This document shows, in pieces, positions 62,314-62,677 of a stretch of 64,000 nt of DNA. Position 1 is the stretch's first letter; every line of letters begins with the position of its first letter. Origin of the DNA: Escherichia coli (lineage in GTDB: Bacteria; Pseudomonadota; Gammaproteobacteria; Enterobacterales; Enterobacteriaceae); assembly GCF_016026235.1 (NCBI RefSeq), contig NZ_CP065613.1; one strand, written 5' to 3'. The notes beneath the pieces are model-generated. The model had not been told where the DNA came from. It saw nothing but the letters and a program-made list of their open reading frames with translations, and made no database searches. The translations under genes and the position numbers were made by a program.

Positions 62314-62342
62314 TTGACAAATAACCTTAAGCATGGCATAAT
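62314..62342 (+). promoter_or_regulatory. Strong sigma-70 promoter (consensus -35, extended -10)
   Basis: TTGACA (62314-62319), 17 nt spacer, TGG-CATAAT (62337-62342). Confidence 0.7.
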
Positions 62343-62348
62343 TTTAAT

Positions 62349-62569
62349 TATGGGAGAGCAATTCTCTCTTATTTCTTTCAACAATTCCATCTACGTCTAG
62401 GGATAGTTATTCTGAAAGGTGCAATGCTTTTCGTCATGGCTTATTTAGCCCGCACTAAATAGGCCATATCAAAAATCTTTGTTCATTCATTGAATCCTTT
62501 AGATGTTTTTAATTTCTTCACCTTATGAATAGCCCTTTATAAGAAATTATCTAGGGCTATTCAGTTTTT
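62349..62569 (+). ncRNA. Candidate ~220-nt structured RNA or terminated leader
   Basis: No credible ORF. Hairpins at 62354-62368 and 62436-62467 (13-bp stem with one G-U pair). Terminator-like AATAGCCCT-N16-AGGGCTATT plus a T-run (62528-62569). Confidence 0.45.
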
Positions 62570-62649
62570 AAAAAGCATACTTGGCAAACGCTTTTAAGTC
62601 TCTTCTAAGTTTTTTGTATGGCTGTCAAGTATGCTTTTTAAAAACTGAA
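62560..62649. repeat. 23-bp perfect inverted repeat (44-nt loop)
   Basis: TTCAGTTTTTAAAAAGCATACTT (62560-62582) pairs with AAGTATGCTTTTTAAAAACTGAA (62627-62649), just upstream of the SD of the 62678 ORF. Confidence 0.8.
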
Positions 62650-62677
62650 ATACTTTAGCTTAGAAGAGGAAAAAACA

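Follow-up and report, generated by a model that had tools for sequence, protein, structure and literature searches.

We found a structured 5' leader of about 330 nt in a 64,000-nucleotide stretch of Escherichia coli DNA (contig NZ_CP065613.1 of assembly GCF_016026235.1; this whole stretch is the window). It lies on the plus strand between a near-consensus promoter and the first of two genes that precede the tail genes of a genomic island. Comparison with related loci establishes the predicted helices of this leader as real plus-strand RNA structures under selection, namely four or five helices, at least one intrinsic terminator, and a loop that pairs with the Shine-Dalgarno (SD) region of the following gene. 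We propose that the leader acts in cis as a double lock on the late/tail module of the island, combining a terminator with an RNA structure that masks the ribosome site, and we put the chances of this reading at about even. The succession of a strong promoter, a structured RNA of ~220 nt reaching to a terminator, and then genes, which an earlier note on this DNA had recognized, is conserved in 30 of 30 related loci.

Covariation of the leader structures

The leader and its immediate surroundings in the window comprise the following features.

62291-62313, plus strand: near-invariant block T[A/G]TTACCAATCTGTTAAAAAGCTG abutting the -35 hexamer, a candidate UP element or operator
62314-62342, plus strand: sigma-70 promoter with extended -10 (TTGACA, 17-nt spacer, TGG-CATAAT)
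62349-62350, plus strand: predicted transcription start, 7-8 nt past the -10 hexamer by promoter geometry
62350-62372, plus strand: hairpin A, the 5'-terminal stem-loop, with the core GGGAGAG-CAA-TTCTCTC (62352-62368, 7 bp)
62414-62433, plus strand: invariant 20-nt block GAAAGGTGCAATGCTTTTCG, containing an SD-like AAGGTG and an ATG, on the 5' side of the lower stem of hairpin B
62436-62467, plus strand: hairpin B, a 13-bp stem with the 6-nt loop CCCGCA
62479-62502, plus strand: conserved linker containing TTGAATCC (62490-62497), which is invariant or nearly so
62526-62569, plus strand: T2, an intrinsic-terminator-like hairpin (62526-62563) followed by G and U5 (62565-62569)
62560-62649, plus strand: long hairpin (IR-D) with 27-nt arms (62560-62586 and 62623-62649) and a 36-nt loop
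62600-62609, plus strand: anti-SD sequence CTCTTCTAAG in the loop of the long hairpin, complementary to 62659-62668
62659-62680, plus strand: translation initiation region of the 236-aa gene, with CTTAGAAGAG at 62659-62668, the SD core at ~62665-62670 and the ATG at 62678
63634-63675, plus strand: T3, a strong intrinsic terminator that lies between the 68-aa and the tape-measure genes and has a 15-bp stem (dG -22 kcal/mol) and U6

Our comparison is based on an alignment (A1) of 29 distinct leaders, which come from the window, 15 E. coli chromosomes (70-94% identity), E. albertii, an Escherichia sp. and 11 IMG/VR contigs; one more E. coli leader, read apart from this alignment, has the same architecture. 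The alignment is a mosaic: between invariant blocks lie segments that come in two or three unrelated versions, freely recombined. The pair count covered hairpin A, the core of the terminator, the loop-SD helix and 21 pairs of the long hairpin. Standard pairs made up 96.0% of the 1198 cells, compared to 41-61% when the structures were slid by 1-3 columns, and double-sided changes occurred in 13 pairs and 78 cells. None of 500 shuffles matched the observed pairing percentage or covariation score; this control is subject to a relatedness caveat, whereas the slid controls and the full replacement of stem sequences are independent of relatedness. Folding energies point in the same direction, with z = -6.5 for the 342-nt leader (equalled by none of 100 shuffles) and z = -6.0 for a 224-nt short form (none of 200).

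The count also differs between the strands: G-U cells number 138 against 18 A-C cells, and 96% of the cells are paired as plus-strand RNA, compared to 86% as minus-strand RNA. This G-U excess and the strand asymmetry argue against protein-binding palindromes, and also against an antisense transcript as the selected molecule. They bear directly on the possibility that the region works as DNA, for example as a replication origin, a packaging site or an operator array whose repeats are palindromes or cruciforms. An AT-rich sequence that is dense in inverted repeats, contains several sequence-invariant blocks and lies near replication genes would suit such an element. Protein-binding palindromes keep their sequence, however, whereas the stems observed here keep pairing despite full sequence change, and their reliance on G-U pairs works only in plus-strand RNA. 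We thus disfavour a DNA-level element and consider it very improbable.

The leader always occupies the same location relative to the genes, and no stand-alone copy was found. A scan of the genome contigs with a single protein yielded only two loci. Matches to an 18-mer of the promoter at four IMG/VR loci (three distinct contigs) were dropped: one that was read and two with the same downstream sequence are unrelated phage, and in the fourth the script found no downstream gene. The Rfam scan proposed in the earlier note, at the gathering threshold for the whole window and at E<=10 for 62200-62720, gave only sub-threshold microRNA-hairpin noise in the leader region. Elsewhere in the window, three minus-strand regions exceeded the threshold (33202-33395, 55065-55107 and 40863-40950: Ysr251, ES036 (CssrF) and tRNA-Ser(GGA), respectively), all of them unrelated to the leader.

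Promoter and upstream helices

In our own scan, the promoter was the sole match to 11 of 12 consensus positions on either strand of the window, with runners-up at 10 of 12, and it is therefore indeed the best promoter of the window, as the earlier note had claimed. A consensus scan likewise ranked it first within 58000-64000 (11/12 plus extended -10). The -35 hexamer (62314-62319) and the spacer are invariant in the 29 leaders and the TG (62334-62335) is kept; the -10 hexamer (62337-62342) varies among relatives between CATAAT, GATGAT, GAAGAT and GATGGT. The block at 62291-62313 is nearly unchanged in the 29 distinct leaders, compared to only 53-64% identity of the flanking proteins, and the whole of 62291-62336, which includes this upstream flank, the -35 hexamer and the entire spacer, is invariant or nearly so across the alignment. 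As far as the alignment can tell, an invariant spacer is compatible with a bound protein, and the promoter flanks probably serve as the operator of an element-encoded DNA-binding protein. Directly behind the -10 hexamer, TTTAAT in the window is replaced by TGTATAT or GGTAAT in relatives, so that there is no consistent TAnnnT motif.

Between 62343 and 62677, the plus strand contains no open reading frame (ORF) of at least 30 aa, in agreement with the earlier description of about 330 nt lacking a credible ORF before 62678. The noncoding stretch begins at 62291 rather than at 62213, since a conserved ORF of 25 aa occupies 62213-62290. This plus-strand ORF (MGLIIAWTLLGLFVGCWVGNTVNKN) is unannotated and overlaps the stop of the preceding 107-aa gene (TAATG); it is kept as a small hydrophobic peptide with conservative substitutions in nearly all relatives, some of which have an alternative 21-aa version (MELVIICFVLIGMIAGASIKV). 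Within the leader, a 12-codon mini-ORF at 62424-62462 with the SD-like AAGGTG was considered as a leader peptide and rejected, because its length is not conserved (5, 12, 24 or ~45 codons in relatives) and a peptide function is thus unlikely.

Hairpin A, which the earlier note had seen as a GAGAG/CTCTC pairing, proved to be a 7-bp stem that can be extended to 62350-62372. It is 98% paired across the relatives, with double-sided changes (G-C to A-U) in 3 pairs and 43 G-U cells against 1 A-C cell. The 20-nt block at 62414-62433 is identical in 29 of 29 leaders and in locus L036, and it is followed by hairpin B in all relatives. The arms of hairpin B, ATGGCTTATTTAG (62436-62448) and CTAAATAGGCCAT (62455-62467), pair over 13 bp through one G-U pair as plus-strand RNA, exactly as the earlier note had read them. 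Its 14 variants, which have no in-register alignment, were folded singly: all of them form 10-12 bp, although the stems belong to three unrelated types (GGCUUAUUUAG, GACCUCUUA and GGCCUUUCAG), and every variant contains 1-2 G-U pairs and is more stable as plus-strand RNA than as its complement.

Two further pairings were rejected after inspection by eye, a long-range helix between 62393-62404 and 62494-505 that folding had predicted, and a link between hairpin A and T3, both of which begin with GGGAGAG; in neither case do the partners change together in relatives. Some relatives additionally carry related hairpin cassettes of 28-30 nt (GAGGATAGTCTTCTATCCGAAGTC, GAGGTATGTTCTATACCGAACAT, AAGGATGATTCCATGAATATCCGAATCAC), which are present or absent at several leader sites and after T3 and resemble tiny mobile or duplicated modules. 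They are located behind the -10 hexamer in L003, L007, L031 and L036, before the invariant block in L007-L010, L018, L024 and L026, in the loop of T2 in L012, L018, L019, L023, L024 and L028, and after T3 in L003, L004 and L012. The leader of the window is devoid of such cassettes.

Terminators

The terminator-like hairpin with a T-run described in the earlier note was found again as T2, with the hairpin TGAATAGCCCT...AGGGCTATTCA at 62526-62563 (dG about -19 kcal/mol) and TTTTT one G further on. Our own scan flagged this hairpin, which the promoter/terminator tool had passed over because of its internal loop. The GCCC/GGGC core of the stem is invariant in 28 of 28 sequences with letters at this position. 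Most relatives have a U5-6 tract straight after the stem; in the subtype of the window, the stem is extended by AAUAG/CUAUU and UUUUU follows one base later. About half of the relatives contain an extra block of ~100 nt upstream of T2, which starts with a canonical terminator (GCCCTAATCATGAGTTAGGGC-TTTCTTT). Every leader has at least one intrinsic terminator, and about half of them have two. Termination at T2 would produce an RNA of ~220 nt, as the earlier note had predicted.

Further downstream, T3 (63634-63669 without the last six positions), which the earlier note had not listed, is kept in 26 of 30 relatives. In many of these, its U-tract and the SD sequence of the tape-measure gene are only ~20 nt apart. 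A promoter would not fit into this gap, and transcription of the tape-measure and baseplate genes must consequently cross T3. The order of the whole unit, with promoter, leader with T1/T2, two genes, T3 and tail genes, matches the layout of an operon under processive antitermination.

Proposed masking of the ribosome site by the long hairpin

The long hairpin and the anti-SD sequence in its loop were absent from the feature list of the earlier note. This hairpin has a dG of -37 kcal/mol, and its inner 21 pairs are 97% paired across the relatives, with double-sided changes in 7 pairs and 80 G-U against 11 A-C cells. Three sequence types share one architecture, in which AGCA/TGCT in the middle of the hairpin is invariant or nearly so. 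In the window, the loop sequence CUCUUCUAAG is complementary over 10 bp to CUUAGAAGAG, which extends across the SD region of the 236-aa gene (duplex energy -17 kcal/mol). The corresponding pair in a second leader type is UCUUCUAAG / CUUAGAGGA, with one G-U, and in type D3, with the loop TTCACCTCT and the SD region AGAGGTGAA, both sides differ and pair as UUCACCUCU / AGAGGUGAA. The SD types D1 and D2 (CUUAGARGAG) and D3 (AGAGGUGAA) are thus each accompanied by a matching loop. Since both partners change together, the contact between loop and SD region is under selection.

Nested folding prefers the 27-bp hairpin (-40.4 kcal/mol, compared to -23.5 kcal/mol for the alternative) and cannot hold hairpin and contact together, so the contact would be a loop-to-tail pseudoknot. 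RNase III could plausibly act on the 27-bp duplex as well, and its cut would separate the anti-SD sequence from the message.

These structures have to be considered together with the idea of a stand-alone, trans-acting small RNA (sRNA) of ~220 nt, which would extend from 62349 to ~62569, use the 20-nt block or a hairpin loop as its seed, and could regulate immunity or maintenance of the island or act as an anti-helper RNA. The earlier note had offered P4 CI and P1 c4 as models for such an RNA. A near-consensus, constitutive-type promoter right before a terminated and highly structured RNA fits this idea, as do the terminator and U-tract kept in all relatives and the 20-nt segment that, amid co-varying stems, stays invariant as an sRNA seed would. 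Nevertheless, we consider an sRNA of this kind unlikely. It matches no Rfam family, phage antisense RNAs included, and has no target with above-chance complementarity in the island or in one complete Felixounavirus genome, where the longest match to the leader was 14 nt, a length that 31 of 100 shuffled leaders reached or exceeded; the comparison with P4 CI and P1 c4 therefore found no support. The RNA was, moreover, never met apart from the downstream genes, and its structures run past the terminator and engage the SD sequence of the next gene.

A proposed double lock on the tail module

If the leader acts as a double lock in cis, most transcripts in a resting cell would halt at the leader terminator and give rise to a discrete RNA of ~220 nt. 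The few read-through transcripts would yield little protein, since their ribosome site would be paired to the loop, and transcription beyond the two genes would be halted once more at T3, before the tape-measure gene. Expression would require a factor that enables RNA polymerase to cross the terminators and that could originate from the element itself or from an infecting helper phage. It would also require that the ribosome site is freed, for which RNase III cutting of the long hairpin is one candidate. An operator in the promoter flanks might in addition be bound by a protein of the element, and the ribbon-helix-helix-like 107-aa protein encoded next to the promoter is a candidate for this role.

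Several points weigh against the double lock. The leader transcript is predicted from the sequence alone, and a promoter that feeds straight into a terminator fits a stand-alone small RNA gene equally well. The U-tract of T2 in the window consists of five U after a one-base spacer, with A's next, and termination may therefore be partial. Masking depends on a pseudoknot, a structure outside the model of the folding tools, for which, by a rough estimate, loop segments of 13 nt and a linker of 9 nt provide sufficient length; the nested fold leaves the SD sequence with a mean unpaired probability of 0.42 (~58% paired). Searches of the five upstream proteins against Pfam, PHROGs and NCBIfam revealed no Q, N or other antiterminator domain. 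Finally, a search among the neighbours for an N-like partner that co-varies with hairpin type yielded no candidate: in none of seven protein families encoded between -2.6 and +1.5 kb did a common type of hairpin A or B go along with higher similarity of the proteins (permutation p > 0.16 for B). The type of the long hairpin alone tracks the adjacent gene, as linkage predicts.

Neighbouring proteins

The genes on either side of the leader are the following.

61889-62212, plus strand: 107-aa gene adjoining the promoter, with two divergent types among relatives
62678-63609, plus strand: two genes behind the leader, encoding 236 aa (62678-63388) and 68 aa (63403-63609)

The 236-aa and 107-aa proteins are each 100% identical to E. 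coli entries. Neither the 236-aa nor the 68-aa product has a Pfam, PHROG, NCBIfam, PADLOC, PDB-sequence or phage match, and tblastn of the 236-aa protein against phages found none either. Homologs of the 236-aa protein are named 'transposase' at NCBI, a name that looks unfounded, as Pfam, NCBIfam and PHROGs detect no transposase or other domain. The AlphaFold model of this protein (pLDDT 56) was too poor for a fold search. Some relatives have an alternative gene of 234 aa (~24% identity) in the same slot.

The small proteins contain no repressor or other domain according to Pfam, PHROGs, NCBIfam, PADLOC and PDB-sequence searches. The model of the 107-aa protein (pLDDT 67, medium confidence) shows a beta-alpha-alpha unit twice, and its best fold matches, which are weak (E > 0.2), are F-plasmid relaxosome chains of ~110 residues and the viral regulator AvtR, all of which we take to be tandem ribbon-helix-helix DNA binders. 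This weak evidence points to a DNA-binding regulator rather than a Q protein, and makes the 107-aa protein a candidate for binding the invariant promoter flanks.

Such a regulator would also be at home in a simpler scheme, in which the leader is a passive attenuator or insulator: leaky terminators would set a fixed low expression, a repressor would control the promoter only, and the 5' hairpin and the long hairpin would serve mRNA stability or processing by RNase III. The invariant promoter flanks and spacer, which suggest a bound protein, the twofold beta-alpha-alpha model of the 107-aa protein with its weak matches to F-relaxosome and AvtR chains, the modest U-tract of the window terminator, and the failure of the domain searches to find an antiterminator are all in line with this scheme. 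It does not readily explain why two or three successive terminators, including T3 with its -22 kcal/mol stem and U6 tract, are kept across heavily recombined relatives, and a co-varying anti-SD sequence is hard to reconcile with a mere stability element. We therefore regard a passive attenuator as rather improbable, about on a par with the stand-alone sRNA.

The host island and its relation to Felix O1-like phages

From ~56950 on, the G+C content of the window drops to 0.35-0.41, compared to ~0.5 before. The island genes in the window are all located on the plus strand and encode a small serine recombinase/invertase, a Dam methylase and a replication-initiator-like protein, followed by small proteins of 96, 106, 141 and 107 aa, the 25-aa peptide, the leader, the 236-aa and 68-aa proteins, and the start of the tape-measure protein; opgH-yceK-msyB form the left flank. 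Related copies are present in 477-556 of 5426 complete E. coli genomes (~10%), always in the chromosome. Two fully bounded copies (L016 5325-16374 and L001 ~19950-33914) define an element of ~11-12 kb, with an IS insertion in one of them discounted, whose right end comprises a tape-measure gene of ~690 aa, a 'baseplate' gene of ~255 aa and a large serine recombinase. These copies are inserted in yecE and between tonB and yciI, and there are at least three integration sites overall.

Over its full length, the tape-measure protein shares 30% identity with counterparts in Felix O1-like myoviruses (Felixounavirus). In these phages, the gene behind the tape measure encodes a protein with 76-77% identity to the 'baseplate' protein, so that both genes stand in the same order as in the island. 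The element is not lambdoid, given the similarity of its tail genes to those of the virulent Felix O1-like phages. Searches of phage and plasmid collections in near and distant modes retrieved no relatives at the DNA level, and the searchable literature on satellites with tape-measure genes and on Felixounavirus satellites held no description of the element. The homology suggests an island, so far uncharacterised, that is connected with virulent Felixounavirus phages and may be a satellite or serve in defence.

Further observations concern the island and its border. Promoter-like sites matching 10 of 12 positions stand back to back on both strands at 60925-60975, in the gap before the 106-aa gene. 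The minus-strand site faces a hydrophobic ORF of 61 aa (60688-60873, minus strand), the only minus-strand ORF of at least 60 aa in the island part of the window that is clear of plus-strand genes, and this may be a switch region. Between msyB and the left end of the island, a 323-codon ORF (55891-56862, minus strand), which is uncalled in two draft assemblies with an identical locus, may be a disrupted integration target.

Possible phage target and significance

A longer version of the anti-SD loop, CTCTTCTAAGTT (62600-62611), is complementary at 12 of 12 positions to AACTTAGAAGAG, which lies 14-25 nt upstream of the tape-measure start of Escherichia phage HMD-P10 (L039 5563-5574). In the commonest leader type, D1, this loop is conserved as CUCUUCUAAGUU. 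The match can only serve as a lead and could be due to chance, because CTTAGAAGA recurs eight times in the phage, where it is over-represented, probably through codon usage. The start region of gene 1 of the island also resembles this stretch of the phage just before the tape-measure start codon.

It is conceivable, but in our judgement even less probable than the sRNA or the passive attenuator, that the leader is a helper-sensing switch of undescribed satellites or anti-phage islands of E. coli, Shigella and Salmonella. In such a switch, a phage factor would make the polymerase terminator-resistant, and the loop might act in trans. The islands would parasitise Felix O1-like myoviruses and supply tape-measure and baseplate proteins of their own, and the loop could silence the tape measure of the helper while the island copy is made.

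The leader is situated at the regulatory centre of an island that occurs in roughly one tenth of complete E. coli genomes, and Felix O1-like phages are used in phage therapy and typing. Should the leader be the switch by which the tail genes are turned on, it would provide an experimental handle on the means by which an element in the chromosome perceives a virulent phage and exploits or blocks it, and on how termination control and masking of the ribosome site are combined in one RNA. The ordinary reading, too, would make this leader a clean example of leader-based control that involves several helices and is rich in G-U pairs.

Comparison with known systems

The earlier note had compared the region to the PR'-6S-tR' arrangement of lambdoid phages. 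The layout of promoter, leader, terminator and late genes stood up in our analysis, whereas the Q gene and the lambdoid context did not, and the lambdoid assignment is therefore wrong. Like the leader described here, PR'-6S-tR' of lambda consists of a strong constitutive-type promoter and an untranslated leader of ~200 nt that ends in an intrinsic terminator, and, as in the island, morphogenesis genes and further terminators within the operon follow downstream. In contrast to lambda, there is no Q-family gene upstream and no conserved -10-like pause element, and the host is not lambdoid. The leader also continues for ~110 nt beyond the terminator with a hairpin that would mask the ribosome site, which lambda is lacking, and it shares neither sequence nor Rfam similarity with the 6S leader.

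The nut sites of lambda and P22 and the put sites of HK022 resemble the leader in that a hairpin directly succeeds a conserved linear segment at an early position, ahead of the terminators. As with boxB, the sequence of this hairpin varies between related elements; the invariant block presumably resembles boxA only loosely. The stem of 10-13 bp differs from the 5 bp of boxB, no arginine-rich N-like protein was found, and no neighbour co-varies.

The leader of the P4 immunity system, where the CI RNA is cut from the leader of the PLE operon and transcription terminates prematurely, belongs to a small, integrative, phage-dependent element, which the island may be as well. Both have a constitutive promoter and a long, structured, untranslated leader, and control, as proposed for the island, is by termination rather than by a protein repressor. 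They differ in that our RNA matches no Rfam family and in that the island carries serine recombinases and Felixounavirus-like tail genes instead of P4/P2 genes. Repeats of the seqA/seqC kind, complementary to the processed RNA, were not found in a word-7 BLAST of the leader against 56901-64000 and a stretch with a complete relative, which returned only the hairpin arms and otherwise matches of <=16 nt at E ~0.1 or higher.

Phage leaders processed by RNase III include the N leader of lambda and the R sites of T7. They share with our leader a long, near-perfect duplex just upstream of a translation start, whose cleavage would alter access to the ribosome site; in the leader, in contrast, such cleavage is purely a prediction.

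IS200 and IS10 are protected by a terminator and a stem that sequesters the ribosome site upstream of the gene. The leader would form the same double lock of a terminator and an RNA structure that pairs with the SD sequence, and differs from these elements in three ways. A strong promoter lies upstream of the terminator, so that the lock would also affect the element's own transcripts; the anti-SD sequence is presented in the apical loop of a 27-bp hairpin, in a pseudoknot-type contact, and not by a fold-back stem; and the 236-aa protein is without a transposase domain despite its database name. On this comparative evidence, the leader represents a covariation-supported RNA family, absent from Rfam and from the searchable literature, in which known leader controls are brought together in a new arrangement.

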